From Armatimonadota bacterium (GTDB lineage Bacteria; Armatimonadota; Zipacnadia; Zipacnadales; UBA5352): a stretch of 64,000 nucleotides of DNA. The DNA lies in the NCBI GenBank assembly GCA_050942735.1, contig JBMNNW010000006.1:18793-82792 (forward strand). Direction: 5' to 3'. Below are positions 1,865 to 64,000 of this stretch, piece by piece; within the stretch, counting starts at the first letter, position 1; each line of letters starts with the position of its first letter. The translations under genes were made by a program, and so were the position numbers. The notes beneath the pieces are model-generated. The model did no database searches, had not been told where the DNA came from, and worked only from the letters and a program-made list of their open reading frames with translations.

Positions 1865-1897
1865 GATGAGAGGCCGGCGCGGTACCGGCCTCTCATC
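1865..1897. terminator. Perfect 13-bp stem / 7-nt loop hairpin (gatgagaggccgg-cgcggta-ccggcctctcatc) between convergent genes
   Basis: Read directly from the sequence. It lies between the stop of 3..1844 (+) and the stop of 1927..2652 (-). There is no U-tract, which is common in high-GC genomes. Confidence 0.4.
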
Positions 1898-4116: not shown

Positions 4117-4243
4117 CACAACCGAAGGCACCTGCGTTCGGGGCGGCGTCAGCGACGCCGCCCCGAGCCATGTACGAGGCAGGAGCGGCGTCGGTCGCGG
4201 TGGAAGGTTAACATGCCGGGCGGAATCACAGCGAGGGACCGGG

Positions 4244-6014: not shown

Positions 6015-6989
6015 TCACAGCGCGGAGGCGTCAACGACATTGCCATCGCGAATCGACAGCTTCGCCGCCTCGAGCGCGGCCATCGTCCGGCGAACGTCCC
6101 TCCCGGATGCCTCCGGCTCATCAGACTCGCGGATCGCGCGCGCGAACTCCCCCACCTGCGCCCGCCACGCCGCGGGGCTGTCGAGCGGGATCTCGATGAC
6201 CTCATCGCCGAGCCGGATCTGCTCGGAGGTGATCATCATCGCGGCGTCGGTGCCGATGACCATGCAGTCCCACGCGCCGAAGGGCGTGTTGAGGCTGTGG
6301 TGGTAGGTCGCGATCGGGCCGTCCACCAGGGAGATCTGCACGGTGATCTCGTCATAGTCGTTCCAATACTCATTGTTGACGCGCGCCCCGGCGTAGACAT
6401 CTCCCGCCACACCGTTGTTGAGCCACAGGATCATGTCTACCTCGTGAGCGCCGTAGCCGTAGAGCACCCAGCCTCCGGCCTCCTCGGGCTTGCTGGCCCA
6501 CTCGGAGCGGAAGCCCTCAGATTTGCCGAGGCGCCGTCGCAGCACGTTGCGCACCTCGCCGATCGCTCCCTCGCGAATCAGCTCACGGGCCCTGATGTTG
6601 ACCGGCCGGAAGCGCAGTATCTGCCCGACCATCAGGACGACGCCCGCCTCATCGGCCGCGGAGATCATCTCATCGGCCTCGGCAAGCGAGGTCGCCATCG
6701 GCTTCTCACAGAGGACGTGCTTGCCCGCCTGCGCCGCAGCCACCGTCACCTCACGGTGGAGGTGGTGGGGCAGCAGCACGGAGACGGCCTCGACATTCTC
6801 GTCCTCAAGCAGATCGCGCCAGTCGGTATACACCGCCGGCACTGCGAACTCCTCCGCCCGCTCACGGGCGGCCGCCTCGTTGATGTCGCAGACCGCGACA
6901 GTTCTGAGGCCATCCACGTCCCGGTAGGCCGGCAGGTGCCCGTTGGCGATGCCGCCACAACCGATCGCTCCGATCCCAATCTGATCCAT
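6015..6989 (-). CDS. Gfo/Idh/MocA-family NAD(P)-dependent oxidoreductase
   Basis: N-terminal Rossmann motif IGIGAIGCGGIANGH and ...LCEKPMA..., followed by the C-terminal alpha/beta domain. Confidence 0.75.
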   Translation of the reverse strand: MDQIGIGAIGCGGIANGHLPAYRDVDGLRTVAVCDINEAAARERAEEFAVPAVYTDWRDLLEDENVEAVSVLLPHHLHREVTVAAAQAGKHVLCEKPMATSLAEADEMISAADEAGVVLMVGQILRFRPVNIRARELIREGAIGEVRNVLRRRLGKSEGFRSEWASKPEEAGGWVLYGYGAHEVDMILWLNNGVAGDVYAGARVNNEYWNDYDEITVQISLVDGPIATYHHSLNTPFGAWDCMVIGTDAAMMITSEQIRLGDEVIEIPLDSPAAWRAQVGEFARAIRESDEPEASGRDVRRTMAALEAAKLSIRDGNVVDASAL

Positions 6990-7087
6990 CCCACGACCTC
7001 CCGCCGTCTCTCACTCAGACAGACGAGGGCCGCCGGGGCGCCGGCGACCCTCGCTGGATCCATCCGCGCATCGCTTCAGCGCGGGCG

Positions 7088-23190: not shown

Positions 23191-23275
23191 GTTGCCCTGG
23201 CACGTCGGCCGGACGTGACGACGCCCGGGGCATTTCGCCCCGGGCGTCGCGTTCGCCCTCCCTCACGCGGGCGTG

Positions 23276-26150: not shown

Positions 26151-26332
26151 CGGACGCCCTCCTGTGTTCCCGCTGAGTGCGCTGCAGGACGTTGTTTCTT
26201 TGACGCCACCGGAAATCCTGCGTGCGGCGGCGGCGATTGTTGTCGTGGAGGCAGGTCGTGGTCAGTCGCCGAAACGCCCCTGGGGGGAGGGCCCGGCGGA
26301 GAGTCGGGGGCCGCGAACCAGCCTCAACAGAT

Positions 26333-26354
26333 CCCCGCGCCTCAACGCGCGGGG
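26333..26354 (-). terminator. GC hairpin (ccccgcgc-ctcaac-gcgcgggg) just after HD-domain gene stop
   Basis: Read from the sequence. It lies 40-60 nt downstream of the stop at 26391 on the minus strand. Confidence 0.3.
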
Positions 26355-26390
26355 AGGGCCAGCCGGGGACCGAAGGACCGCGTGGCCCCG

Positions 26391-45784: not shown

Positions 45785-45815
45785 GCGCCCGGCAGACGCC
45801 GGGCGCTCTCCTTTT
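45785..45815 (+). terminator. Intrinsic terminator: gcgcccggc-aga-gccgggcgc followed by TCTCCTTTT
   Basis: 9-bp GC stem plus a U-tract, 25 nt after the cspA stop. It is the only canonical U-tract terminator noticed in the window. Confidence 0.6.
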
Positions 45816-49999: not shown

Positions 50000-51472
50000 A
50001 TGACAGGAGATATCACTGAGATGTTGATACGACCAGACGAGCGCGACGTGCCTGACCTGAGCTCAGAGATGACGCCGAGGGAGATCGTGGCGTCGCTGGA
50101 TCGGTACATCGTCGGGCAGGATGACGCAAAGCGCGCGGTGGCCGTCGCGCTGCGCAACCGCGTCCGGCGACAGCATATCGCCGAGGACCTGCGCGATGAA
50201 GTCATACCAAAGAACATCCTGATGATCGGCCCGACCGGTGTCGGCAAGACCGAGATTGCGCGGCGGCTCGCACAACTGGCGAAGGCGCCCTTCATCAAGG
50301 TCGAGGCCACGAAGTTCACCGAGGTCGGCTACGTCGGCCGCGACGTCGAGTCGATCGTGCGCGACCTCGTGGACATCGCCTTCCGGATGGTCGAAAAGGA
50401 GCACCTCAAGCGCGTCATGCCCGAGGCGAAGCAGCGGGCGAACGAGCGCCTCCTCGAGACGCTCGCGGGCGGCGCCCCTGACGCCTCGGAGGGGGGCTGG
50501 ATGGGCGGCGGGATGTTCGGGCGCGAGGAGAGCGCCGAGGAGGCGATCACCCGCCAGGAGCACGAGCGAAAGCAGCGCGAACAGCATCAGAAGGTCCGCG
50601 AGTACACCCGCCGGCGGCTCGAGTCGGGCGAGCTTGAGGATCAGGAGATCGAGGTCGAGGTCGAGGACACCGGCGGGACACAGAGCCTGCAGATCTTCTC
50701 ACCGCAGGGGATCGAGGAGATGGGATTCAGCATGCAGGATATGCTGGGCAGCCTCTTCCCCTCACAGACGACCACACGCACGATGACCGTTGCCGAGGCC
50801 CGCGAGGTGCTCGCGGCGCAGGAGGCCCAGCGACTGATCGACAGCCACGCGATCGGGGCGGAGGCGATCGACCGCAGCGAACAGTCGGGAATCGTCTTCC
50901 TCGACGAGCTCGACAAGGTCGCCGGGCGCGGCAGCGAGGGCCACGGCCCCGATGTCTCACGAGAGGGCGTGCAGCGGGACATCCTCCCGATCATCGAGGG
51001 CTCGACAGTGCAGACGAAGTACGGCCCCTGCGACACATTCCACGTACTCTTCATCTGCGCCGGGGCGTTCCATGTCTCCAGCCCGTCGGACCTGATCCCT
51101 GAACTGCAGGGGCGGCTGCCGATCCGCGTTGAACTCGACAGCCTCTCGGGCGACGACTTCCGCCGCATCCTCGTCGAGCCGGAAAACTCGCTCGTGCGCC
51201 AGTACACCGAGCTGCTCGCGACCGAGGGCGTAACCATCGACTTCACCGATGATGCCCTTGATCTCATCGCCGAGACCGCCGAGGACGTCAACGACACCAC
51301 CGAGAACATCGGGGCGCGGCGGCTCTACACGCTGATGGAGCGGCTGCTTGAGGAGCTCTCCTTTGAGGCGCCTGAGATCTCAGGACAGAAGATCACCGTT
51401 GACGTCGGCTACGTCGACTCGCAGCTTGCCGACCTCGCGAGCGACGAGGACCTGTCCCGGTACATGCTCTGA
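50000..51472 (+). CDS. hslU: ATP-dependent protease ATPase subunit HslU
   Basis: EMTPREIV...YIVGQDDAKRAVAVALRNR, Walker A GPTGVGKTE, C-terminal DLSRYML. The start could be 50000, 50021 or 50069. Confidence 0.85.
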   Translation: MTGDITEMLIRPDERDVPDLSSEMTPREIVASLDRYIVGQDDAKRAVAVALRNRVRRQHIAEDLRDEVIPKNILMIGPTGVGKTEIARRLAQLAKAPFIKVEATKFTEVGYVGRDVESIVRDLVDIAFRMVEKEHLKRVMPEAKQRANERLLETLAGGAPDASEGGWMGGGMFGREESAEEAITRQEHERKQREQHQKVREYTRRRLESGELEDQEIEVEVEDTGGTQSLQIFSPQGIEEMGFSMQDMLGSLFPSQTTTRTMTVAEAREVLAAQEAQRLIDSHAIGAEAIDRSEQSGIVFLDELDKVAGRGSEGHGPDVSREGVQRDILPIIEGSTVQTKYGPCDTFHVLFICAGAFHVSSPSDLIPELQGRLPIRVELDSLSGDDFRRILVEPENSLVRQYTELLATEGVTIDFTDDALDLIAETAEDVNDTTENIGARRLYTLMERLLEELSFEAPEISGQKITVDVGYVDSQLADLASDEDLSRYML

Positions 51473-52440
51473 CGGGTGGCTGAGCGAGGGTGGGGCGCGA
51501 CGCGGCCTCTCAGGTTGACGAGGCGTAGAGCGTCAGTCCGCCCAGCAGCAGATAGAACCGCACCGACCACGCTCTTGAGGCCCTGCTTGGGGAGGGCGCG
51601 CACGGTCGCGGCGGCGAGGACGGATGCGAGCGTCGCGCCGATCAGCAGCGCTACGATCAACAGCCATGGCATCGCCGCTCGCATCACCAGATACCCGGCG
51701 ATGCCGCCCACGCATGCCAGCGCCTCCGACAGCGCGGTGACCGCGATGGCGCTGCGCATTGAGTCACCGGTCGCGATCTGCCCCGCCACGATCAGCGGCC
51801 CGTATCCGCCGCCCATGAAGCCTTTGTTCGCTCCAGCGATCAGACCAAGCGCCGCGGCTCGCCCCCACGAGAAGCGCAGCCGCAGCCGCCGCGCGACGAA
51901 GATCACGATGCCCATCGAGAGGATCAGCCCGCCCACGGCGGTGTCGAGGATGCCCTCCGGCAGCCGCACGGCCATCGTCGCTGACGCAAAGCCGCCGGCG
52001 AGTCCGAGGCCTCCCAGCAGCATCGCCAGCCGGAAGTGGCGCCGGTCGGTGCGCAGGTCGGCGTTGCCGACGAGGTGGTGGCTGACCGCAGCGATTCCGC
52101 CGGAGGCGAACTCGCTGACAAGCACGGCCACCACGACCTGGGTGACCGGAAAGCCGAGCAGGATCAGCAGTCCCGTCAGCGTCGTGCCGTAGCCCATCCC
52201 CAGTGAGGTGTCCACATACTCGGCGAAGAACGACAATCCCACCGGCAGGATGTAGTCGGTGATCTGCCGCTCGGCCCGGGCATGGGGAACATCCACTCCG
52301 ACGAAGGTGAAGTAGACCGCGACCGAGAGGACCCCGAGGATCGAGAGGATCCAAAGGCCCGTGAGCGCTCGCCTGATGCTCCGCAACGAACTGTCCGAGA
52401 AGCGTTCCCTCAACTGCTGAACCAGCGGCGGTTCTCGCAC
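51409..52440 (-). CDS. Sulfite-exporter TauE/SafE-family membrane protein
   Basis: Multiple TM helices with Gly-rich TauE-type repeats. It has a GTG start. Its 3' end overlaps hslU (convergent) by 64 nt. Confidence 0.6.
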   Translation of the reverse strand: MREPPLVQQLRERFSDSSLRSIRRALTGLWILSILGVLSVAVYFTFVGVDVPHARAERQITDYILPVGLSFFAEYVDTSLGMGYGTTLTGLLILLGFPVTQVVVAVLVSEFASGGIAAVSHHLVGNADLRTDRRHFRLAMLLGGLGLAGGFASATMAVRLPEGILDTAVGGLILSMGIVIFVARRLRLRFSWGRAAALGLIAGANKGFMGGGYGPLIVAGQIATGDSMRSAIAVTALSEALACVGGIAGYLVMRAAMPWLLIVALLIGATLASVLAAATVRALPKQGLKSVVGAVLSAAGRTDALRLVNLRGRVAPHPRSATRQSMYRDRSSSLARSASCEST

Positions 52441-52493
52441 TGACCTCTTCCACCTTATGGGGCAGTCGCGCCCATGATGCCGCTACCGCCGAT

Positions 52494-53252
52494 TCACTTC
52501 GCCACAAGCCCGTAGACTCTGAAGTTGTCCACGAACTCGTGGTTGCGGACGGTGCGGAACCCGAAGTGACCGCTGTCGTAGGGCTCCGGGTCGTTCAACT
52601 CGAAGATGACCTCGCCATCCCTGATGAACTGCACCAGACCGTTGAAGTAGACGAGCTGGAATGTGTACGTGTGCGTCGGCACGATCAGGTAGTGCGGGTT
52701 GCCATCGTAGTGATCGATCGGGTCGGGCGGCGGTGCCTCGCCGGTGTATCTGCGGAAGCGGCAGGTGGTGTTGTTCCCGCCACCGTAGCCCACGTAGTAC
52801 TGCTTCAGCGTGGCATAATTCGGGAAGCTTCCCGCGCGCCACTCCGAGCGCGCCCAGATGTCATCGGGGTGCTCGGGGTCGTGCGCCTGCCAGAAGCAGT
52901 TGAGGTCGCGCACGTAGTCGTACTCACCGCCGCCCGCCCACGCCTGCCGCTGATACTCGATCATGACGTTGCCCTCAAGCCTCTCGCGGAACCAGACCGT
53001 CAGGCCTGTGAGCGTCTGCAGCTCCATGCGTTCCTCGTCGATCCGGGGCTCGACATCGCCCTCCCAGACCCAGTTCGACAGGTCGCCGGAGAAGTCGTCC
53101 TCGTGAAGCACCTCGCCGACGGCGTACGGCTGATCGGCGATCGTCTCATGTGCGTAGATCGGGAAGGGCTTCACCGGCTCGAACTCCTGCGCGCCTGCCA
53201 CCATCGCGGTCACCACCAGAAGTGTGATGATACAGATCCCATCTCTTCGCAT
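52494..53252 (-). CDS. Secreted hypothetical protein (beta-sandwich/ConA-like?)
   Basis: Internal Met at 53252 gives the signal peptide MRRDGICIITLLVVTAMVAGAQE. The rest is W/Y-rich. Confidence 0.45.
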   Translation of the reverse strand: MRRDGICIITLLVVTAMVAGAQEFEPVKPFPIYAHETIADQPYAVGEVLHEDDFSGDLSNWVWEGDVEPRIDEERMELQTLTGLTVWFRERLEGNVMIEYQRQAWAGGGEYDYVRDLNCFWQAHDPEHPDDIWARSEWRAGSFPNYATLKQYYVGYGGGNNTTCRFRRYTGEAPPPDPIDHYDGNPHYLIVPTHTYTFQLVYFNGLVQFIRDGEVIFELNDPEPYDSGHFGFRTVRNHEFVDNFRVYGLVAK

Positions 53253-53338
53253 CCTGCGGCCTCCCTCACGTTGAGACGGTCGGCATACCTCGAGAGACGT
53301 TGATTCCAGCGGCGGATGCCGCGGCGAGTCGCCGCGCC

Positions 53339-55951
53339 TCACCGCACCACCACCGGCTGCCCGTCCACGGTCAGTTCTGTCCCATCCACCACGCCACCGG
53401 AGATCGCGCCCTCGGCGTCGCGGCGCACAACTGCCAGTCGGGCGGTGGTCGCCACCCCCCCGACATCCATCGCCACCGGCCCCTCGAACGCGTAGAGGAC
53501 GGTCTCCTCCCCCACCTCGCGGCTCAGCCGGATCGCGAGCATCTCGCCGTTCTGCGCCAGAAGCTCGGCCGACACCACCGGCGGCTGCTCGGTCGGATGC
53601 GGCAGCATCAACGTCACCAGCATCTGCGGCGTCGGCCCGGTCTTCGAGTACACCACGCAGGGGATCGGGCGGTGATTACCCGTCCGCGGCTCCCAGCCCA
53701 GCAGCGGATCCTCCTGCCCCTTCACGACCCGCATCGACATCCCGTCGGTGGCCAGCGGCACCAGCGTGAGGTTCGCCCGGCCGGGGTCGGCGCTCGAGAC
53801 GCTCAGACCGTCCGCGTGCACCGCCGCCTCCTCGGCATCGAGGTTGAAAAGCGCCTCATAGAGGTGCTCGCCCTCCGCGTCGAGCAGCCGGTCGATCACC
53901 AGATAGGCGTCGGGCCGGAGGTAGATGACCGTCCGCTCGTGTGTACACGCCATACGATCGGGACCGTAGCCCGTCTCGTAGCGCCCGACGCACCAGTCGA
54001 AGAGTTCACTGGTTGCCCAGACACCCTCCAGCGGCTGGTCGGTCTGATAGGTCTCCCGCAGCCCGCGGCGGCGCTGGCTCATGCCATCAACCATCACGGT
54101 GTTGTGCGCGGGGGTGTCGAGGACGAAGCGCCGCCACTGCGAGCGATCGTAGGAGTAGTTGCCTCCCTCCGTCAGCAGCGGACGGCCCCAGCCCCAGAGG
54201 TACATGCTGAGCTTGTCCTCATGCTGGTGGCCGATGCCGAAGGGGCCCACCTCGAAGACCAGATAGCGCGCGTCCTCCTCCCAGCCTGAGCGCATCACGG
54301 CCTGCCCGGCCCACGGGAAGAAGATCGAGGTGAAGTCCACCGGCTCGCCCTCGGCTCCCGCGGTCGCCGCCCAGAGATACTCCGGGTCGCCCCACGTCTC
54401 GTACGCCTCCCGCAGCGAGTTCCTCACGTTCGACATCCCCGAGTCGTTGAGCGGCGGCACCTGGCCGGAGGGCATCATGATCCCGAGGTTGTAGTCGTAC
54501 ATCCGCCGCATCCCGTCGATGTATCCCTCCGGCAGATCGAAGCCGTTGCGCAGCGCCGGATTCGTGGCGCGCCGGAAGTTCCCCAGTGAGACCTGATGGT
54601 AGCTCGGAGCAAGCTCCATCTGCGCACCGTCGGGATACACCTGCTCGTCTATCTCCACCAGCAGCCGCGCGTAGGCGACCTCGCGCCAGTGCTCCGCCTC
54701 GGTGAACTCCGGGAACATGCAGCCGATGTGCGCGAGACCGTTGCACTCCATCGCCACCCAGTTGCTCCTGCGGTCCGGGTATTCCACGGTCATGCGCGTG
54801 AGCGTGCGGGCGTGCTCGACCCATGACTTGAGGAAACTGCAGTGCGCCTCGGGAGTCATCTGCGGGGCGAAGAGGAAGTAGTGGTAGGCGTCCATCCACG
54901 AGCCCGCGGTGCGGATGCCCTGCTCGATGGTGCGCCAGGTCGGCGCCTGGTTGGGGCTGCCCAGCACGGGCATGGGATTCTGGCGGACCCAACTGAGCAT
55001 CTGCTCGACGAACTCATCGGCGTATTTGTCGTCACCGGTCGCCCACCACGCGCGCCCAAGGATGCGCCAGTTCTCGAAGCGGTTGAGCTGGTAGGTCCAT
55101 TCGGGCGTGAACGCGGGCTCATCGGGGTCAAAGCCGTTGAAGGACCAGTCGATGTCATCACCCACATGCGCCTCGCGGCCGAAGCGGTTGAACATATGCG
55201 TCAGAACGTAGTCGGCCTGCGAGGTGTTGTACCCCTCCACCCGGTTCTGATCGTACTCGGACGGCTCGAAGCTCCACGTCGGCCAGTCGCGTCCGCGGTA
55301 GTACTCCAGCAGGTGCGCCTTCGCGGCGTCGTAATCGCCCGCGGCGGCCGCCTCACGGGTGGCTGCGAGGCCGTCGATGTCATCGTTGAGCAGGGAGAAG
55401 AACTCCTCATCGGTCAGCAGCGGGCCTGTCCCGCCGATGTCATTGCGAAGCTCAAGCTGGTCGATGTGGACCACCGCCTCGGGATGCGGCTCATTGTCCC
55501 AGCCCGACGCGGTGAAGCGGATCGAGTCCACCTGATCCCACCCGCGCGGGCTTCGGGTGCCGGAGTTTTCGCGAATCATCGTGCCGAACATCTTCCACCC
55601 GGTGAAGTTCAGCGGAACCCTGACCGACCAGTAGTCCGGCCCCTCCGTCTCCGGGTTCTCGGAGGTGATGATGCACATGAACGCGGTGTCCACCTCGCGC
55701 TCGTTGTACACCCAGAACGTGAACGCGTTCCATCCGGTCCAGTCGTGGGGTATCTCATCGCTGAAGACACTCGTATTCTCCGGGTGGTTGCGCCAGAGGG
55801 CGGAGGTGGCTCCTGCGCGGGCGACCTCGTCACTCAGCTCAACCCCCGTCCACGCATCGACGGACGAGAATCCCTCGATCAGCAGGCGGTCCTGCGCAGA
55901 GCATGCAGATACGATAGTCACGATAATAAGCGGCGTCATCCAGCGTACCAT
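53339..55951 (-). CDS. Heparinase II/III-like / alginate-lyase-superfamily secreted protein (870 aa)
   Basis: Signal peptide MVRWMTPLIIVTIVSACSAQ. Heparinase II/III C-terminal block ...GPFGIGHQHEDKLSMYLWGWGRPLLTEGGNYSYD...HNTVMVDG. A GGAGG RBS lies 8 nt upstream. Confidence 0.6.
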   Translation of the reverse strand: MVRWMTPLIIVTIVSACSAQDRLLIEGFSSVDAWTGVELSDEVARAGATSALWRNHPENTSVFSDEIPHDWTGWNAFTFWVYNEREVDTAFMCIITSENPETEGPDYWSVRVPLNFTGWKMFGTMIRENSGTRSPRGWDQVDSIRFTASGWDNEPHPEAVVHIDQLELRNDIGGTGPLLTDEEFFSLLNDDIDGLAATREAAAAGDYDAAKAHLLEYYRGRDWPTWSFEPSEYDQNRVEGYNTSQADYVLTHMFNRFGREAHVGDDIDWSFNGFDPDEPAFTPEWTYQLNRFENWRILGRAWWATGDDKYADEFVEQMLSWVRQNPMPVLGSPNQAPTWRTIEQGIRTAGSWMDAYHYFLFAPQMTPEAHCSFLKSWVEHARTLTRMTVEYPDRRSNWVAMECNGLAHIGCMFPEFTEAEHWREVAYARLLVEIDEQVYPDGAQMELAPSYHQVSLGNFRRATNPALRNGFDLPEGYIDGMRRMYDYNLGIMMPSGQVPPLNDSGMSNVRNSLREAYETWGDPEYLWAATAGAEGEPVDFTSIFFPWAGQAVMRSGWEEDARYLVFEVGPFGIGHQHEDKLSMYLWGWGRPLLTEGGNYSYDRSQWRRFVLDTPAHNTVMVDGMSQRRRGLRETYQTDQPLEGVWATSELFDWCVGRYETGYGPDRMACTHERTVIYLRPDAYLVIDRLLDAEGEHLYEALFNLDAEEAAVHADGLSVSSADPGRANLTLVPLATDGMSMRVVKGQEDPLLGWEPRTGNHRPIPCVVYSKTGPTPQMLVTLMLPHPTEQPPVVSAELLAQNGEMLAIRLSREVGEETVLYAFEGPVAMDVGGVATTARLAVVRRDAEGAISGGVVDGTELTVDGQPVVVR

Positions 55952-55968
55952 GGCGCGTACCTCCAGGC

Positions 55969-56004
55969 GGGGGGGGGGGGGGGGCGAAGCGCCCCCCCCC
56001 CCCC
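55969..56004. repeat. Homopolymer inverted repeat: G16 - cGAAGCg - C13 (hairpin with GCGAAGC apex)
   Basis: Read directly from the sequence. It lies between the stop of 56035..56673 and the RBS/ATG of 53339..55951. Confidence 0.8.
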
Positions 56005-56034
56005 GGGTGTCGGTCGCAGACTGTGCCCGGCCGG

Positions 56035-56673
56035 TCAGTCCCGGCCGTAGAGCCCTTCGAGCATCGCCTCGCCGATGACCCGCCCCTCCATCGCGGCCTC
56101 AAGCTCGTCCTGCGTCGCGCCGGGCTCAAGCTCGAGCGCCCCGGAGAGCGCATAGCCTCGGAACTGGTAACGGTGTGGATCACCGGGCGGGGGCGCGGGG
56201 CCGCCGTAGCCGATGTTGCCCCACGAGTTCTCGCCCTGCACCAGTCCGGGGTCTTCGACGGTCTCCTCGGCCGGAACGTCCTCGGGCAGCCCGCCGATGT
56301 CGGGGGCCATGCCGTAGGCGACCCAGTGCGTCCAGCCGCCCGCCCGCGGCGCGTCCGGATCGTGGCAGATCAGCGCGATCTCCACGGTGCCCTCGGGCAC
56401 GCCCTCGAAGGTCAGCGGCGGTGAGACATCCTCGCCGTCATCGGTGTACTTCTCGGGGATCGTCTCTCCGTCCTCAAATGCGCTCGATGTGATTATCCAG
56501 GCCATCGGCCCCTCCTCCTCATCGACCGCCGTCTCCTCGCTGCGCATCTCCTCGATGATCTCGGGCGACTCCTCAGGGACCTGCCCGGTCTCCGACTGAT
56601 ACTGACAGCCCGCCCACGCGATCAGCGTCAGCATCACGGCCGCCGAGATCACCAGCATCACATGTCTGTTCAT
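56035..56673 (-). CDS. YbhB/YbcL-family (PEBP/RKIP-like) lipoprotein
   Basis: Lipobox LIAWAGC. PEBP blocks ...LICHDPDAP...GWTHWVAYG...GYGGPAPPPGDPHRYQFRGYAL. Confidence 0.75.
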   Translation of the reverse strand: MNRHVMLVISAAVMLTLIAWAGCQYQSETGQVPEESPEIIEEMRSEETAVDEEEGPMAWIITSSAFEDGETIPEKYTDDGEDVSPPLTFEGVPEGTVEIALICHDPDAPRAGGWTHWVAYGMAPDIGGLPEDVPAEETVEDPGLVQGENSWGNIGYGGPAPPPGDPHRYQFRGYALSGALELEPGATQDELEAAMEGRVIGEAMLEGLYGRD

Positions 56674-56703
56674 CCTGGATAGCCTCCTCGTATGTTCTGA
56701 GCG

Positions 56704-58077
56704 TCACTCGATCGGACACGCGCTCTCCATGCAGGCCTTCATCGAGCCGAGGAAATTCTCCACCTCCCTGAGACCGTTTCGCTTCAGGATAGACGCGGCG
56801 TTCGAGGCGCGGTAGCCGGTGCCGCAGAACGTCACGATCGGCCTGGTGTCACCGATCTCGCCGATGCGGTCCTGCAGCTCTCCCACGAAGATGTGCTGCG
56901 CGCCCTGAAGGCTTCCCTTCTCAAACTCGCTATCCTTGCGCACGTCCAGCAGCAGAAACTCCTCGCCCTCATCGTAGCGCCGCTTGATCTCCTCGACGAA
57001 GATCTGCGGGATGCTGTCGAAAGGCAGCGCGCTCATCGCCCACGCCTCCATCCCGCCCTCCAGCCAGCCCGCCACATCCACATAGTCGATTCGCTGCAAC
57101 TGACGCCATGCCGCCTCGAACATCGCGCGGTTATTCACCACGAGCGCCAGCGGAGTGCCGTAGTCCACCTCGTAGCCGATATACGCCGAGAGCATCGGGA
57201 ACGCGATGTTCAGCGCGCCGGGAATGTGCGCTCCACCGAATGCCTCCGCCCCGCGCAGGTCGAGAACCAGCCCGCCGCCCTGGCAGAACGCGTTCACCTC
57301 CATCGCGCTCATCGGCGCGGGGAGTTCGCCGACGGCGTCGCGCAGCAGCTCGGGGCCCTTCTGATTGCTGCTGTGTATGCGATCGAAGTACATCGGCATG
57401 TGGTGGAACTCGCCGGCCTTATACTGCACAAACTCATCGCGGTCGGTCATCTGCAGCACGGAGTTGTGTGCGCGCTCGTAGCCGAGCGTGGAGAACTCCC
57501 GGTCGGCCATCGAGTCGCCGCAGACCGAGCCGGCCCCGTGCTCCGGATAGAGGATCGCCTGGTCGCCCAGCGGGAGGAGTTTCTCGAAGATCGAGTCGTA
57601 GAGCAGCCCCGCCACATGCTCGCGCTGGTCCGGGAAGAAGTCAGTGCGCCCCACGTCGCCGATGAAGAGCGCGTCGCCGGTGAAGACAGCGACGGCGTCT
57701 TCGTCGCTGAACTCAGTGTCATAGACCGCGATCGAGATGCTGTCGAAGGTGTGCCCGGGGGTGTGGATTATCTCGAGGCGAAGCTGGCCGAGTGTGAAGC
57801 TGTCGCCCTCGGCGACGTTGCTGCCGTAGCCCCATTCGGTCGCCTCGTGGTGGTAGATCTCGGCCCCGGTGCGCGCGGCCAGTTCGCGCGAGCCGATGAT
57901 GTAGTCCTCGTTGCGGTGAGTCTCGAAGACGTGCGTGATGCTCAGACCCTCATCATGCGCGATCTCGATGTAGTCATCGACATCGCGCCTGGGGTCGATC
58001 ACCGCCGCCTGCTTCCCGCTACCGATCAGGTACGACAGATGCGCCAACCCTTCGGATCGGATCTTCCGCAAGATCAT
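56704..58077 (-). CDS. MBL-fold metallo-hydrolase fused to two rhodanese-like domains
   Basis: HTPGHT motif and an overall MBL fold, followed by two rhodanese-like domains (...FCGTGYRAS...). Motif 1 is degenerate (THRNEDY, not HxHxDH). The start at 58077 is MILRKIRSEG. Confidence 0.65.
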   Translation of the reverse strand: MILRKIRSEGLAHLSYLIGSGKQAAVIDPRRDVDDYIEIAHDEGLSITHVFETHRNEDYIIGSRELAARTGAEIYHHEATEWGYGSNVAEGDSFTLGQLRLEIIHTPGHTFDSISIAVYDTEFSDEDAVAVFTGDALFIGDVGRTDFFPDQREHVAGLLYDSIFEKLLPLGDQAILYPEHGAGSVCGDSMADREFSTLGYERAHNSVLQMTDRDEFVQYKAGEFHHMPMYFDRIHSSNQKGPELLRDAVGELPAPMSAMEVNAFCQGGGLVLDLRGAEAFGGAHIPGALNIAFPMLSAYIGYEVDYGTPLALVVNNRAMFEAAWRQLQRIDYVDVAGWLEGGMEAWAMSALPFDSIPQIFVEEIKRRYDEGEEFLLLDVRKDSEFEKGSLQGAQHIFVGELQDRIGEIGDTRPIVTFCGTGYRASNAASILKRNGLREVENFLGSMKACMESACPIE

Positions 58078-58840
58078 GTGCGTCCTCCTCCTCCACGACT
58101 CGAGTGTCGGCCAATGCGCCAGTCTCAGATTGGCCGGACCAGAGGCAGTCCCACGCATTCACCCATTCTGTTATGCAATGCCGAGAATACCTGGATTGCA
58201 TGAACATTTCGCTACCCATAGGCCATACTCTTACATAAATGCACGCGCTATCATCCTTTGGATGAAGCTTCAGATCGTTCTCTTTCAGCCACGCCTGAGG
58301 CAGGATCACGGGGTACTTGAGTTCGCCGGCAGCGTCAAGGAGGAGAAAGAGTAAGACGTCACTGGCTTCCAGTTCTCGACAGGTCAGCCCAAACCACCAT
58401 TGATTGTCGCCCTTGCGACATCGAAAGTGATGGACTGCCGCCGTGCGCTCCTCGTCGGCCGTGCTGATGATGAGCTCTGTGCAGCGATCCGTCGTGCGCA
58501 CATTGACCTCTCTCCCCCGAGGTGCATGTTCCGCACACAGGTCGAAGGCCAGTGTCTGAGCGAACTCTGGAATCGGCCCACTATCGTCGAAGGACCCGCC
58601 TCCCTGCCTGAGAGGATCCTTAATCCCGTTGCGCCGTCCGAGTTCAACGTCGATTCCGAGCGGATCAAGGATCAACTGCGCCTCCCTGATGCGGCGATCA
58701 CGCTCACGGATTGCCTGTGCCACGTCCGTAGCAAGATCCAACCCATCGATTGTCTCTGGTGAGGCTTCCTCGGCGAGGCGGAGAAGGAATTTGAGGCGAT
58801 CGTGGCTTCTCTCAGTCTGGGTCATATTGGCGCGTGACAC
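58019..58840 (-). CDS. Hypothetical protein in lower-GC islet (273 aa)
   Basis: Long uninterrupted ORF across a visibly AT-richer stretch (~58.1-58.85 kb). GTG start at 58840 or ATG at 58825. No family was recognised. A possible hhhhD...ExK-like motif (VLLFLLLDAAGELK) is noted speculatively. Confidence 0.4.
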   Translation of the reverse strand: MSRANMTQTERSHDRLKFLLRLAEEASPETIDGLDLATDVAQAIRERDRRIREAQLILDPLGIDVELGRRNGIKDPLRQGGGSFDDSGPIPEFAQTLAFDLCAEHAPRGREVNVRTTDRCTELIISTADEERTAAVHHFRCRKGDNQWWFGLTCRELEASDVLLFLLLDAAGELKYPVILPQAWLKENDLKLHPKDDSACIYVRVWPMGSEMFMQSRYSRHCITEWVNAWDCLWSGQSETGALADTRVVEEEDAHDLAEDPIRRVGASVVPDR

Positions 58841-59157
58841 CTCATGGTTGCCTCTGATGCCGCCACATTCGTCACGAGAATCAACTTCTGCAGCGGCCTG
58901 GGCGATCTGTATTTGCTTCCGAGTTCACACTGAATTAATCCCCATGAGATATTACAACATTTGTCGGATGCATGTCCAACCACTTTTCTCGGTCGGAGAC
59001 GTCAAAATACGAACGAATGCCATTACAAAACCCCCACTTTCACAGAATCCACACCTACAACCTCGCGGGAGCGGCCTCCCTTCGATGGCCCAACCTGACT
59101 CCGCCACTCCTCATGATGTGCTCAAGCACTTTGCATGCGATCATACGGCGGACGCCT

Positions 59158-60147
59158 TCACTCGCGGCTGACTGCGTCCATAAGCGCCCGCATGTACCCG
59201 AGGGCATACGCGCGCCCGCGGTGGCCGTAGGGCGTGTCGCCGGCGACGCCGGGCGTGTGATCGGGCATCATCGCGTAGGAGTACCCGACGTCGCGATATG
59301 CGCGCATCGCCTCCAGCATGTCCGTGTCGCCGTCATCAATGAAACATTCGTCGAAGAAGGGCACTGCACCCTTGACATCCCGGAAATGCACGTGGTTGAT
59401 TCGGTCGCGCTCGCCAAACCACCGGATGGCCTCGATGACGTCAACGCCCATCTCCGCGACAGTGCCCTGACAGAAGTTGAGGCCGTTGACCGGCGACGGC
59501 ACCTCCTCGATGAGCCGCTTGAGGCCCTCGATGGCGCCGATGATCCGAGCCTCGCCGCGGAGCCACTCAGTCGGCGGGTCGTGCGGATGCAGCGCAAGCC
59601 GCAACCCATGCTCCTCAGCCACCGGAACGATCCGTCGCAGGAACCACAGCAGCCGCTCCCACATCGTGTCGGCGTCCATGGCCTCGTCCGGCTCAAGCGG
59701 TCCGACGTCCCGGACCGCCTCGTAGTCGAAGCGCCGTACGCGGGCCCGGCCGCGGCCCTCGCCGTGCGTGCTCCCCCAGACATCCGGCACGCTCCACGTC
59801 CACTCGACCACCGGCACCCCGAAGCTGCCTATCACGCGCAGGGTCTCGCAGACGTCCTCGACCTCCTGCTCGCCCTCCGGCCGCCCGAGCCGCGCGTTCC
59901 AGTACTGCGTGTCGCGCCCCTGCGGCAGCAGCACCACCGAGAGCGCCAGCCCGTGCTCATCAAGCTGCTCGATGATGCGCCCAATATCCTCCGTGTGCAG
60001 CACATTGCCGTTCTCGCGACTGATCAGATCGCTGCCGCAGATCTTCACCCCGTGCACGCCAAACTGCGCGGCGAATGCGAGATCGTCAGGGTCAAAGATC
60101 GCCGGTTCGCCGTGCAGCCGCATTCCGAGACACAGCTTCATCGTCAT
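59158..60147 (-). CDS. uxuA: Mannonate dehydratase
   Basis: Overall UxuA xylose-isomerase-like TIM-barrel signature. Confidence 0.75.
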   Translation of the reverse strand: MTMKLCLGMRLHGEPAIFDPDDLAFAAQFGVHGVKICGSDLISRENGNVLHTEDIGRIIEQLDEHGLALSVVLLPQGRDTQYWNARLGRPEGEQEVEDVCETLRVIGSFGVPVVEWTWSVPDVWGSTHGEGRGRARVRRFDYEAVRDVGPLEPDEAMDADTMWERLLWFLRRIVPVAEEHGLRLALHPHDPPTEWLRGEARIIGAIEGLKRLIEEVPSPVNGLNFCQGTVAEMGVDVIEAIRWFGERDRINHVHFRDVKGAVPFFDECFIDDGDTDMLEAMRAYRDVGYSYAMMPDHTPGVAGDTPYGHRGRAYALGYMRALMDAVSRE

Positions 60148-60152
60148 TCACC

Positions 60153-61479
60153 TCAGACATGCGGAACGCCGTTATCCAGAGGGCGCTCCTCATCGCGCTC
60201 GCGCTGCAGTCGGGCGGGTGCGTAGTCCCCGTAGAGCAGCGGATCGTTGGTCTCGACCATCCAGTTGTGCACCCGCGTGCGCAGCGTCCACGCCACGTCG
60301 TCGTAGGCCTCGTCGTCGATCACGTTTGTCATCTCAAGGGGGTCACGGTCAAGGTCGTACAACTCCTCTCGCGGCCGCACCTCGTTGTAGAAGTCCTCCT
60401 TCATCGCCTCCCCGGCGGGCGCGACGTAGATGTCCGCGGGCATGTAGACCAGCGGCCGCCGCCCGAAGTTGCGCACGTACTTGTACCTCGTGGTCCGCAC
60501 CGCGCGCATCGGGTTGTACTGATCGTGCCAGTTCATCTCACAGAAGATGTCCTCACGCGGCTCGTAGCGATCATCCCCGTCGAGCAGCGCGAGGAAGCTA
60601 CGACCGTCAACCTGCGCCGGCACATCCACGCCCACGACGTCGAGGATCGTCGGCAGCAGGTCGCAGTTGGTGAGAAGCTCGTCCTGCACGCGCCCGCCCT
60701 CGAACCGCGCCGGCCAGCGCGCGATCAGCGTGGTCATGATCCCGGGATCGTAGCAGGTGCCCTTCGCGCGAGGCATCGCAATCCCGTGGTCGGTGGTGAA
60801 GATAAAGAGCGTCTCCTCCGCGAGACCGCTCGCCTCCAGCGACTCGCGCATCCTCCCGACGGCCTCGTCGAGCCGCCAGATCAGCCCGTGCAGTCCCGCG
60901 AGGTCCTCGCGGATCCCGGGCCTGTCCGGCAGATAGGGCAGCGTCTCGAGCGTCTCCGGATCGTCGCGGTCGTAGCCCTCCCGCTCGTAGGGGCGGTGCG
61001 GCTCGGCGATCCCGCAGTTCACGTAGAAGGGCCGGCCGTCCTGCGCGTCTCCCTGCAGGAAGTCATCGAGCGCGGAGGCGATCGCCAGCGCGTCATGCGG
61101 GGGGCTCTCGATCTCCTGGTAGCCCAGCATCGGCGCCTCAGCGTTCTCATGCTGGTGGCCGATCAGCCGGGTGTGATAGCCCGCCCGATTGAGGTACATC
61201 GGCAGCGTTACCTCGTTGGCGCCCACGCGCCAACCAAGGTGCGCCAGCCCCACGAGGCCGTTGTTGTGCGGGTAGCGTCCGGTCATGATCGAGCCGCGCG
61301 ACGGTGAGCACTGGGCGGCGGTGCAGGCGTAGTTGCTGAAGAGCACGCCCTCAGACGCGAGCGCGTCGATGTTGGGCGTCTCAATCGGCGCCCCCAGCGC
61401 GCCGATGTACTGCCCGAGGTCGTGGCAGATGATCTGCACGATGTTCGGGCGCGTGTTGTGACTTCGGGTGGGCATCATG
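60153..61479 (-). CDS. Sulfatase (arylsulfatase/alkaline-phosphatase superfamily)
   Basis: Sulfatase signature CTAAQCSPSRGSIMTGRYPHNNG (the C/S-x-P-x-R formylglycine motif). The MM start at 61479 has a GGAGGA RBS. Confidence 0.8.
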
Positions 61480-61557
61480 TCTTCCTCCGGTTCCGCTGTC
61501 GCATTCAGTTCACGTAGTTCGTCAGCGAAGCTCGCGGCCCTGCGCACAGGGCGCGGC

Positions 61558-63960
61558 TCACCGCATCTCCCACCGTACTTCGGTGCCGCGTACGACCGCG
61601 GTCTCGTCATCGAAGCGTGAGAGGATCAGGGTGTTCGCGTCCGGCTCGAAGGGCGCCTCGGGGCGCTCGAAGCTCCCCTCGTAGCGCGCGACATCCGACA
61701 CGCGCAGTTCGTCCACGTAGAGTCCTGCCGGCTGCGCGGGGAGCAGAAGCTCCGTGCCGCCCCACCCCGCCGCGGGCTCGAGGTGCCGGTTGTACGAGGT
61801 CTCCACCCGCACGCCGTCGATGAACAGCGCGACCTCGGTCTTGCCCTCGTCGGTGCGGGAGGGCCGCCACGTCGCGGCCAGGTGGGCCCAGCGCCCCGGA
61901 GGCAGGACCATCCCGGTCTGATGGCCGGGGCCCATGTAGATGTAGGTCCCGAGGTTGATCCGCCGGTAGAGATGCAGCTCGCCGCAGCGCACGATCGAGC
62001 GGTTGCGCAGGTCCGTCGGCTGCCGGGTGTCGCGCACCCACAGTTCGATGGTTCCCTCCCGCTCATTCAGCAGCGGCGCGCCATCGGGCGAGGCCAGCGC
62101 CAGGCCCACGTTCGGCGGCAGCGCCAGCGCCTCTCCCCCACCCGCCAGCGGCGACGCCACGCGCGAGGGCGCGTCGCCGTCGGGCTGCGGAATCGGCGGG
62201 ACCTCGATGTCGCGATCCGGCACGAAGAGCGTGTCGCCCGACGCGGCAACGTAGGGCGGCACGCCCTCGAAGCGCAGGAAAGTCGCCATCGGCGCGAGGA
62301 AGCTGATCGACCACACCTCGTCCTCCGCCGGACCGCCTGCCCTCAGTTCGAGGCGCTCCCAATCGTGGCGACACTCCGAGCCGACCGACCACTCAGCCGT
62401 CGCGACCTCCTCACCCTCGGCATTGCGCACAGTCACCGCGACATCGGTGCGCAGGATGATCGCCTTGACCTCCACCGCGAAGTCCTCCGTTCCGGCGGGC
62501 ACCGCGAAGGACTGCGTCGCTCCGTAGACCCACCAGTCGCCGGTAGCGTGGACGTGCTCGGACAGCGTGGTCTCCACCAGCTTCATGTTGATGCGCACGG
62601 TTCGGCTGTCCGGCGCGATCGCGTAGGTGCCCGTCAGCCCGTCCGCCGGCACGGTCAACTCCAGCACGTTGCGGGTGGCGCCTGTGTCTGCGGCGAGTGC
62701 GGGCCGCGAGGACAGGCCGGTCAGCAGATCCACGCGGCCGATCTCCTCCCCGTCCGGGCCGGTCACCTGCAGCGCCGGACGGTCCTCCTCTGGCAGTCGA
62801 TCAGCCCACTGCTCCCAGTTGCTGAACGGCGCGGCGCTCTGTCCGGGTATGCGCTGGTAGACCTCGACCTCCAGCGTCACCGTGAACTCCCCGTCCTCGG
62901 TCTCTCGCAGGTAGATCGGCCCGTTGCCCGAGCCGGTCGGGCCCGCCGGCGGCGGCGGGTCTTCGACATCCGCCAGCAACGCCGCGAAGGTCGGAAGCTG
63001 GTTGCCGAGCGTGGACTGGTAGGCATGTTCGAAGGTCCAGCCGACGGCACCGATCTCATGCGCCTCGCCGTCGGTGGGAACCCGCGTGGTCGCGATCCCG
63101 TGCTGCCACATCGCGAAGGGCAGCAGGCTGCGGTCGCCGGTGAACCAGTACGCGTGCGCCAGCCCCCAGAGCGTCGTTGCGCGCGTGTCCGCGAAGACGT
63201 GGGCGTCCTTCGCCTGCGAGAGGATGCGCATGTCGCTGACGAAGAGATCGCGCATGCGCTCATCGCCGGTGATCTGATGATACTTGACCTTCCCCTCGTT
63301 CATGTACACGTCATCGTAGCGCGTCTGTCCCAGCTCGGCCTGCGCGTTGTAGAGGATGTCGGCGAACTGGTGGGCGATTGAGAGGTACTCGGGCTCCCAC
63401 GTCGCCTCGTATGCCTCCGCGAAGAGCCGCAGGCTGCCGCCGGTCATGCGGTGCCGGTAGATCAGGTTGTGTCCGAGGTCGCGGCCCACCGCGTAGTGGG
63501 AGATGAACTCCTCGAAGACTTCCCATGCGCGCGGGTTACCGTTGAGGTAGTAATCCCACAGCATGAAGCGCGAGTGGCAGTCGCAGCCGATCGTGTATAT
63601 GTCTGCACCGTAGTGGCAGATGCCGCCGTTGCCGCCATAGCGCCCGCCTTTCATCTTCGCGAAGCGGAAATCAAGCGTTCCGTCGTCATCGAGGTGGCAG
63701 ATGTCGAAGTCGAGGATGTGCCGCGTGTTCACGCGGTGGAAGTCCCACGCCTCGCGGTCGCCCGAGCGCATGTAAAGCAGCGGGAAGACGTTCGGCCCGC
63801 CGTAGAACATCTGCGCCCAGTGCCGCCAGTGGACGTAGTCAATCTCCTCAAGACTCGTGGCGTTGGCGAGCGAGTAGTTCACGTCGCCGAAGTTGATCCA
63901 GCCGTAGTTCCCGAGGCGGTCGCGCAGGTAGAGCTTCCGGTGCATGATCGCGTCGAGCAC
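61558..63960 (-). CDS. Large secreted-type protein with C-terminal LamG/ConA-like domain (possibly polysaccharide lyase-like N-terminal region); N-terminus may extend beyond window
   Basis: 800+ aa ORF reaching the window edge. The C-terminal LamG-like block is ...GTIELWVRD...WAHLAATW...LFIDGVRVE.... Confidence 0.5.
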   Translation of the reverse strand: MLDAIMHRKLYLRDRLGNYGWINFGDVNYSLANATSLEEIDYVHWRHWAQMFYGGPNVFPLLYMRSGDREAWDFHRVNTRHILDFDICHLDDDGTLDFRFAKMKGGRYGGNGGICHYGADIYTIGCDCHSRFMLWDYYLNGNPRAWEVFEEFISHYAVGRDLGHNLIYRHRMTGGSLRLFAEAYEATWEPEYLSIAHQFADILYNAQAELGQTRYDDVYMNEGKVKYHQITGDERMRDLFVSDMRILSQAKDAHVFADTRATTLWGLAHAYWFTGDRSLLPFAMWQHGIATTRVPTDGEAHEIGAVGWTFEHAYQSTLGNQLPTFAALLADVEDPPPPAGPTGSGNGPIYLRETEDGEFTVTLEVEVYQRIPGQSAAPFSNWEQWADRLPEEDRPALQVTGPDGEEIGRVDLLTGLSSRPALAADTGATRNVLELTVPADGLTGTYAIAPDSRTVRINMKLVETTLSEHVHATGDWWVYGATQSFAVPAGTEDFAVEVKAIILRTDVAVTVRNAEGEEVATAEWSVGSECRHDWERLELRAGGPAEDEVWSISFLAPMATFLRFEGVPPYVAASGDTLFVPDRDIEVPPIPQPDGDAPSRVASPLAGGGEALALPPNVGLALASPDGAPLLNEREGTIELWVRDTRQPTDLRNRSIVRCGELHLYRRINLGTYIYMGPGHQTGMVLPPGRWAHLAATWRPSRTDEGKTEVALFIDGVRVETSYNRHLEPAAGWGGTELLLPAQPAGLYVDELRVSDVARYEGSFERPEAPFEPDANTLILSRFDDETAVVRGTEVRWEMR

Positions 63961-64000
63961 CGCCTCGATCTCGGCAAATTGCTCCGGGTCACGCGCCGCC

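Follow-up and report, generated by a model that had tools for sequence, protein, structure and literature searches.

The homopolymer hairpin in the 64-kb window (the whole stretch of DNA that was analysed), built of 16 G and 13 C, is very probably a sequencing or assembly error that arose in one assembly on a genuine GC-rich stem-loop of 36 nt. We came to this conclusion because of the comparison with independent assemblies, the form of the substitutions and the recurrence of such elements elsewhere. Among the points against it is that the window's other GC-rich hairpins came out of the assembly as normal complex sequence. On this conclusion, a MAG contig in a public deposit would carry 11 wrong bases out of 36, which mimic a spectacular regulatory element. 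The element would then be a data-quality flag and not new biology, and its use would be limited to a quality-control warning for scans of metagenome assemblies. False positives are to be expected when such assemblies are scanned for G-quadruplexes, phase-variable tracts, unusual terminators or mini-hairpins. A simple filter would be to flag every Gn-short loop-Cn element with n of at least 12 and to compare it with independent assemblies or with reads.

We read the letters of the element directly. On the plus strand there were 16 G (55969-55984), followed by CGAAGCG (55985-55991) and 13 C (55992-56004), in agreement with the first-pass annotation, and the heptamer GCGAAGC to which it had pointed was present in the window at 55984-55990. 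Read on the mRNA strand, the window gives CACCC-G13-CGCTTCG-C16-GCCTGGAGG. The window has 66.7% GC, and its longest other runs were 6 for G and 8 for C, so that this was the sole long G or C run within 64 kb. A run length of G16/C13 far exceeds chance expectation. The element was also the most stable local hairpin found by the hairpin scan in the window (-42 kcal/mol, with -32 kcal/mol for the runner-up). Its placement between the stop codon of a PEBP gene, 30 nt upstream, and the RBS of a polysaccharide lyase gene, with the minus strand as the coding strand, was borne out. The spacing to GGAGG, given earlier as 3 nt, was in fact 4 nt (GCCT). The coordinates of all features are collected in Table 1.

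Table 1. Coordinates of the element, of its neighbouring genes and of other features discussed in the text.
Feature	Sequence	Coordinates	Strand	Remarks
G16-CGAAGCG-C13 element	window	55969..56004	.	very probably a corrupted rendering of a native 36-nt stem-loop; native copies in L001, L002, L003
All 11 window differences (span)	window	55972..56000	.	column-by-column comparison with independent assemblies
PEBP/YbhB-family protein, 212 aa, lipoprotein-like N-terminus (..LIAWAGC..)	window	56035..56673	-	Pfam PBP 5e-39; NCBI MGI5816930.1
Spacer from PEBP stop codon to stem-loop, 30 nt	window	56005..56034	-	includes GACCGAC (56009-56015)
GGAGG RBS of the lyase gene	window	55960..55964	-	4 nt after the stem-loop, 8 nt before ATG; direct read
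Heparinase II/III-like polysaccharide lyase, 870 aa	window	53339..55951	-	start codon ATG at 55951; Hepar_II_III_N 6e-78, Hepar_II_III_C, Lyase_N; NCBI MGI5816929.1
Post-gene GC hairpin, between convergent genes	window	23219-23249		without U-tract; hairpin scan
Post-gene GC hairpins	window	1865-1897, 7024-7053, 26332-26355		without U-tract; hairpin scan
Post-gene GC hairpin	window	45785-45806		followed by a partly T-rich stretch; hairpin scan
Post-gene strong GC-rich hairpin	window	4136-4168		hairpin scan
Repeated module copies	L121	2134-2260, 2542-2660, 3389-3510, 4618-4686
Repeated module copies	L166	11229-11281, 11953-12010, 12758-12816
Repeated module copies	L119	6288-6352, 7442-7504, 8278-

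The assumption that the letters of the window are the true sequence of the organism was contradicted by three independent assemblies. We performed an exact-protein look-up with the PEBP protein and obtained three other contigs. These were L001, a 178-kb contig of the JGI metagenome 3300053716; L002, from the Logan assembly of SRR31066034, of which L005 is the full-length contig (SRR31066034_86103); and L003, from the Logan assembly of SRR31065934. The Logan and JGI contigs may stem from sister samples and not from the DNA of the window. On the mRNA strand all three read GACCGACACCC-GGGGCGGGCGTGG-CGCGTCTGAG-CCCACGCCCGCCC-GCCTGGAGG, with flanks that match the window. The same hairpin may also be split as 5'-GGGGCGGGCGUGG-CGCGUCUGAG-CCCACGCCCGCCC-3'. 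On the plus strand it is an inverted repeat of 12-13 bp, AGGCGGGCGGGCGTGGG...CCACGCCCGCCCC, with CTCAGACGCG as the loop. The length of the segment, 36 nt, was the same in the window and in the three contigs, and the differences were found at positions 55972, 55976, 55978, 55982, 55983, 55984, 55985, 55988, 55994, 55996 and 56000.

Further, we compared the window with the same assemblies outside the hairpin. The Logan contigs L005 and L003 showed zero further differences from the window over 4571 and 2854 nt, and L200 and L201, which these two runs also yielded, were 100.000% identical to it (alignments of 4630 and 4023 nt). At three sites the window disagreed with the 178-kb JGI contig; the Logan contigs covered two of these and sided with the window both times (L003 at the SNP at 55256, L201 at the 1-nt indel at 54258). 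As judged from these alignments, two read sets that were assembled independently gave the same genotype as the window, with the complex hairpin in it. A flank-anchored pattern, GCGACCGACACCC-N26-46-GCCTGGAGGTACGCGCCATGG, gave no match in metagenome_contigs or genome_contigs, two collections from which the window's own contig is absent.

Two side observations concern the contigs used for the comparison. L005 stops at window position 55955, 14 nt beyond the native hairpin, with a distance of 1.6 kb to the start of the next contig from its run. The contig may end there owing to low coverage in general, or to a gap in coverage or k-mers at the hairpin itself. The 178-kb JGI contig (Ga0534105_00763 of 3300053716) was approximately 15% different from the window where its segment L004 (1-3000) was compared with window 61000-63985. 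Many single-base indels were present there, and ORFs were fragmented where the window has intact ORFs of 800 and 485 aa. In the same contig an extra C (window 54258) splits the lyase gene into pieces of 577 and 303 aa. This part of the contig has the look of long-read-like sequence that was left unpolished, or else of a strain variant that has decayed.

The substitutions followed a simple pattern. Changes in the arms were always from non-G to G (5' arm) or from non-C to C (3' arm), and there were loop changes besides. Nine of the 11 substitutions were equal to the immediately preceding native base of the plus strand (expected 3.7), 10 were equal to one of the two preceding bases (expected 5.3), and all 11 to one of the three preceding bases (chance approximately 7e-4). 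The loop changes also fit the rule of the preceding base, with A changed to C after C and C changed to A after A.

Lagging dephasing during sequencing by synthesis is the mechanism that we somewhat favour for this pattern. In such a model the single-stranded template would fold at the GGC-rich inverted repeat, and part of each cluster would lag by one to three cycles. Each call of a lagging cluster would then be a local majority vote over the preceding bases. By this vote the few C and T of the G-rich arm would be read as G and the few A and G of the C-rich arm as C, and the loop would be garbled into CGAAGCG. As the element is nearly its own reverse complement, reads of both strands would be smoothed alike and would agree with each other, and the error would presumably persist in the contig. 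Sequence-specific errors are normally present in a minority of reads; a consensus error would need low coverage, or an assembler or error-corrector taking the wrong path.

We wrote a toy model of lagging dephasing with three free parameters and fitted it on a grid of approximately 1170 settings. In the model, two template positions at the stem base are sites where molecules of a cluster fail to extend with a probability of approximately 0.45, and the majority call is taken at each cycle. Applied to the native plus strand, it returned G15-16 CGAAGCG C13-14, with 1 mismatch out of 36 to the window. For comparison, the unaltered native sequence gave 11 mismatches and homopolymerisation of the arms only gave 5. 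When the minus strand was used, 6 mismatches were obtained. Among 60 controls with shuffled loops, one reached a single mismatch and the mode was 4 (p approximately 0.02-0.03). Since the model is our own and was fitted to the data, it speaks for plausibility and is not proof.

Sequence-specific errors of Illumina reads are triggered by inverted repeats, often terminators, and by GGC motifs, and an inverted repeat that is overlapped by errors of both directions loses coverage (Nakamura et al. 2011, NAR 39:e90, PMC3141275). The native site has these triggers (an inverted repeat longer than 8 bp and/or GGC within approximately 10 nt upstream). Three GGC motifs were located at the stem base of the native plus strand (AGGCGGGCGGGCG), at or just before the first miscall, and copying of preceding bases was observed as well. 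The likeness to the errors of that study (PMC3141275) lies in an inverted repeat of at least 8 bp that is typical for terminators, in several GGC motifs, in miscalls that copy the preceding one to two bases and in coverage or assembly that is fragile at the site. The difference is that those errors are at the level of reads and specific for one direction, whereas the error in the window is at the contig consensus and has made both arms homopolymeric.

Similar elements recurred in other public assemblies. The pattern G13+-N3-12-C13+ matched 58 contigs of IMG/VR and at least 120 of the metagenome collection. Among the metagenome matches listed, 92 of 122 elements lay within 150 nt of a locus end, while uniform placement would give 15.5; in IMG/VR this was the case for 41 of 58 elements (expected 4.1). 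The locus end in these counts is usually the contig end, and clustering there, as read from the positions, is the behaviour of assembly junk. For one interior case a partner was available. L085 (UViG_3300047315_000141) reads AAAGGTCGT-G20-CCTGCA-C13-ACGACGTC at 6133-6171, and L202 (UViG_3300046674_000072), from another sample, reads GCGGCGCGGGGG-CCCGGACA-CCCCACGCCGC at 1190-1220. The two contigs are identical over 7359 nt except for this one hairpin. In L085 homopolymer arms and a garbled loop replace the native G-rich/C-rich hairpin, with perfect flanks and 8 extra G. The dephasing model applied to this pair gave 3 mismatches out of 39 and wiped out the loop, which makes the fit less informative. 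For the interior IMG/VR cases L055, L103, L076 and L088, flank searches for partners returned only the contigs themselves; L085 alone had one. We also observed that extra inverted-repeat bases flank the interior cases L055 (followed by GGGAGG), L084, L058 and L103. A literature search found no paper on homopolymerised hairpins in assemblies.

Another source of spurious poly-G is two-colour chemistry, in which opposing reads would lose signal at the hairpin in dark cycles, and the assembler would join the poly-G to its reverse-complement poly-G. We consider this origin unlikely for the window. Two-colour NovaSeq instruments have been used at JGI in recent years, and a 5'-Gn...Cn-3' orientation is what two opposing poly-G tails would give. 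The G run of L085, which is 8 nt longer than the native arm, also fits stalled dark cycles. Under two-colour poly-G, elements with G first should outnumber those with C first. In IMG/VR there were 58 contigs with G first and 95 with C first (Cn...Gn), and we dropped this test; since C first is at least as common, orientation is not diagnostic. Many affected samples seemingly predate two-colour chemistry, judged only from their low IMG sample numbers. The window element resembles no-signal poly-G in its long spurious G run, with a C run as its counterpart on the opposite strand, and runs of this kind show enrichment at the contig ends of public assemblies. It differs in that it is interior, exactly keeps the native length of 36 nt and has a recognisable, lag-shifted loop in its centre. 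The length, the interior position and the loop information that was kept mean that plain signal loss is not the sole explanation. The simple poly-G join that had been proposed earlier falls short on the same grounds, as the garbled loop can be derived from the native one by lagging dephasing.

A further candidate is an error of long-read basecalling or polishing, in which a nanopore-type basecaller collapses both arms and short-read polishing fails at the hairpin; we regard it as quite improbable. In its favour, a near-palindrome would suffer context-specific basecalling errors equally on its two strands, and noise is present elsewhere in the 178-kb JGI contig, with many 1-nt indels and a frameshifted lyase gene. 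Yet this noisy contig has the hairpin right, and the window is without indel noise when compared with the Logan contigs. Homopolymer errors of long reads are mainly errors of length, whereas the length was preserved in the window. Further, the preceding-base rule and the fit of an ensemble-dephasing model are specific to sequencing by synthesis.

The element could be a genuine allele of one strain, in which the native hairpin was truly converted to a homopolymeric G/C stem that acts as an extra-stable attenuator or as a slippage-prone tract for phase variation. We regard this as very unlikely. The window is otherwise accurate (100% identical to the Logan contigs outside the hairpin), and three arm changes all keep pairing (C:G to G:C twice, U:A to G:C once). 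The conversion in the unrelated pair L085/L202 makes a recurrent biological process conceivable, and the possible origin of the Logan and JGI contigs from sister samples makes a sample-specific allele conceivable. Against this, there were 11 substitutions within 29 nt and none in more than 10 kb shared with Logan contigs of the same genotype, and substitutions packed in this way match no known mutational process. The loop changes have no selective logic, yet they obey the preceding-base rule and are reproduced by the dephasing model. None of the syntenic relatives that have a hairpin carried a homopolymer, and in public assemblies G/C-run hairpins are concentrated at the ends of contigs. Phase-variable homopolymeric tracts (contingency loci) resemble the window in that a G/C homopolymer of at least 13 nt stands beside an RBS. 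Such tracts differ in length, by whole repeat units, and not as homopolymer against complex sequence; here the three independent copies were complex, of equal length and different by substitution, and no relative carried a tract. The terminator, G-quadruplex or slippage switch that had been proposed for a real homopolymer hairpin is at odds with three independent assemblies which have the same flanks and the complex hairpin.

It is scarcely credible that an unknown process targeted to hairpins, seen at work in the window and in the unrelated phage contig pair L085/L202, turns intercistronic stems with G-rich/C-rich arms time and again into stems of pure G:C homopolymer. If true, such a process would yield hyper-stable, slippage-prone switches beside ribosome-binding sites.

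A chimeric contig join or an inverted chimera from multiple-displacement amplification (MDA), which would place unrelated pieces on the two sides of the G/C junction, can be practically dismissed: inverted junctions are typical for MDA chimeras and the Logan contig L002/L005 ends just past the hairpin, but in L001 (178 kb) and in L003 the two flanks adjoin each other with unchanged order and orientation, and the synteny of PEBP, hairpin and lyase is kept in related MAGs. The suspicion of an artefact voiced in the first-pass annotation was supported in general, as the independent assemblies indicate, and unsupported in the forms that it named (chimeric join, MDA, no-signal poly-G).

The mini-hairpin GCGAAGC shared the fate of the homopolymer arms. 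The heptamer of the window is alike to d(GCGAAGC), an extraordinarily stable DNA mini-hairpin. It is absent from the native sequence of L001, L002 and L003, where the loop of the plus strand is CTCAGACGCG. As read from these copies, the resemblance is coincidental and a product of miscalling.

With consensus error as our preferred reading of the homopolymer form, what remains of the proposed regulatory element is a real, conserved stem-loop between the stop codon and the RBS. The native stem has 12-13 bp and a loop of 10-11 nt, and the extended fold reaches -38.6 kcal/mol. After the stem the mRNA strand reads GCCUGGAGGUACGCGCC, and the opposite strand reads GGGTGTCGG. No U-tract was found after the stem on either strand, and the native hairpin is not among the terminators that the scan reported. 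Of the features of a canonical intrinsic (Rho-independent) terminator, the GC-rich stem-loop is present and the U run (at least approximately 4-5 within 8-9 nt) is missing. Rfam 15 gave no match at the gathering score across 55700-56300, and one sub-threshold chance match (E 0.32) lay elsewhere in the region. In both the MFE and the centroid folds an outer helix was present, in which ACC/CA of the spacer pairs with UG/GGU of the RBS region. According to these folds the helix is weak, and it could easily be a chance pairing in GC-rich sequence.

We looked for the stem-loop in relatives. The nearest relatives of the lyase are found in MAGs labelled Armatimonadota, candidate division WS1 or 'Ca. 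Zipacnadia', with up to 82-83% amino-acid identity. The order PEBP, hairpin, GGAGG, lyase is kept in MAGs whose lyase is 70-83% identical. By direct reading, a complex GC-rich inverted repeat was present in the spacer that runs from the PEBP stop codon to the lyase RBS in L006, L007, L010, L011, L013, L014, L022 and L023, and its sequence varies from MAG to MAG. In 6 of these 8 the intergenic hairpin was the best local hairpin (-28.6 to -37.6 kcal/mol, ending 7-23 nt before ATG); for L010 and L014 the hairpin scan chose a structure inside the PEBP gene instead. A strong hairpin at the lyase spacer was not seen in L008, L009 and L017. No hairpin among those of the relatives was homopolymeric. 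In an alignment of the 8 relatives there were 7 consensus pairs, 3 of them with compensatory changes, which is weak covariation, as the spacers are too diverged to align. The motif GACCGAC (56009-56015, minus strand) occurs exactly in L006, L023 and L011, whose hairpin sequences differ, and reads GGCCGAT in L022. In the folds, some of its bases take part in the outer helix with the RBS region. It could be a regulatory site or reflect mere relatedness.

From these comparisons we infer that the real element is a conserved, ordinary intercistronic stem-loop without a U-tract in a high-GC genome. It is probably a partial, U-tract-independent terminator or pause site, or a hairpin that protects a 3' end; termination, stabilisation and translational effects are indistinguishable on the basis of the letters. 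Such a hairpin would uncouple the level of the upstream MBL-rhodanese/PEBP message from that of the downstream lyase/DUF6250/TauE message, and a minor effect on access to the RBS may be exerted through the weak outer helix. With its 12-13-bp stem soon after a stop codon it is like the U-tract-less GC hairpins of high-GC bacteria ('I-shaped' or non-canonical intrinsic terminators) and the intercistronic stem-loops that stabilise mRNA. It differs from both in lying within a string of co-oriented genes, 4 nt from the next RBS. Further post-gene GC hairpins were present in the window (Table 1), and their form suggests that this Armatimonadota lineage commonly ends or punctuates its transcripts with hairpins that have no U-tract. 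The biological weight of the finding is small, as it concerns an ordinary GC-rich intercistronic stem-loop that lies within a gene string for polysaccharide utilisation in an uncultured member of the Armatimonadota.

A different type of homopolymeric hairpin was observed in the IMG/VR contigs L121, L166 and L119, which are low in GC (32-42%), come from different samples and have 10 copies of one repeated module. The module starts with TTGGCACG-N4-yTGCT, a motif similar to the sigma-54 -24/-12 consensus TGGCAC-N5-TTGCW; this start also forms one half of a palindrome, GTGCCAA..TTGGCAC, in several of the copies. Next comes C17-26 joined to G15-27 with no loop, and in most copies this is followed by TATCCCCTTGGGATACCCCATTGTAC, approximately 25 nt, GTCAAG and a T-rich stretch. 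All 10 copies were homopolymeric, with variable lengths. By its layout, the module may be either a phage promoter with a 5'-hairpin or a systematic artefact at a native C-rich/G-rich hairpin.

By a cluster look-up, the window's own contig is an 88,011-nt JGI contig, which NCBI also has as an Armatimonadota MAG (proteins MGI5816929.1 to MGI5816931.1). An exact look-up of the 870-aa lyase and the 485-aa sulfatase gave no match in the gene-position index, and a plasmid megablast gave no match. The genes around the stem-loop belong to a co-oriented string on the minus strand (window 51409-63960). Its first part encodes an 800-aa protein (Laminin_G_3-like, by its counterpart in L004), a 485-aa sulfatase-like protein and an AP_endonuc_2/UxuA-like protein. 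The MBL-fold rhodanese and the PEBP lipoprotein follow, then the heparinase II/III-like lyase, DUF6250 and a TauE sulfite exporter. The string looks like a locus for the use of sulfated polysaccharide with sulfur handling. The pairing of PEBP and lyase is kept across Armatimonadota/WS1 MAGs.
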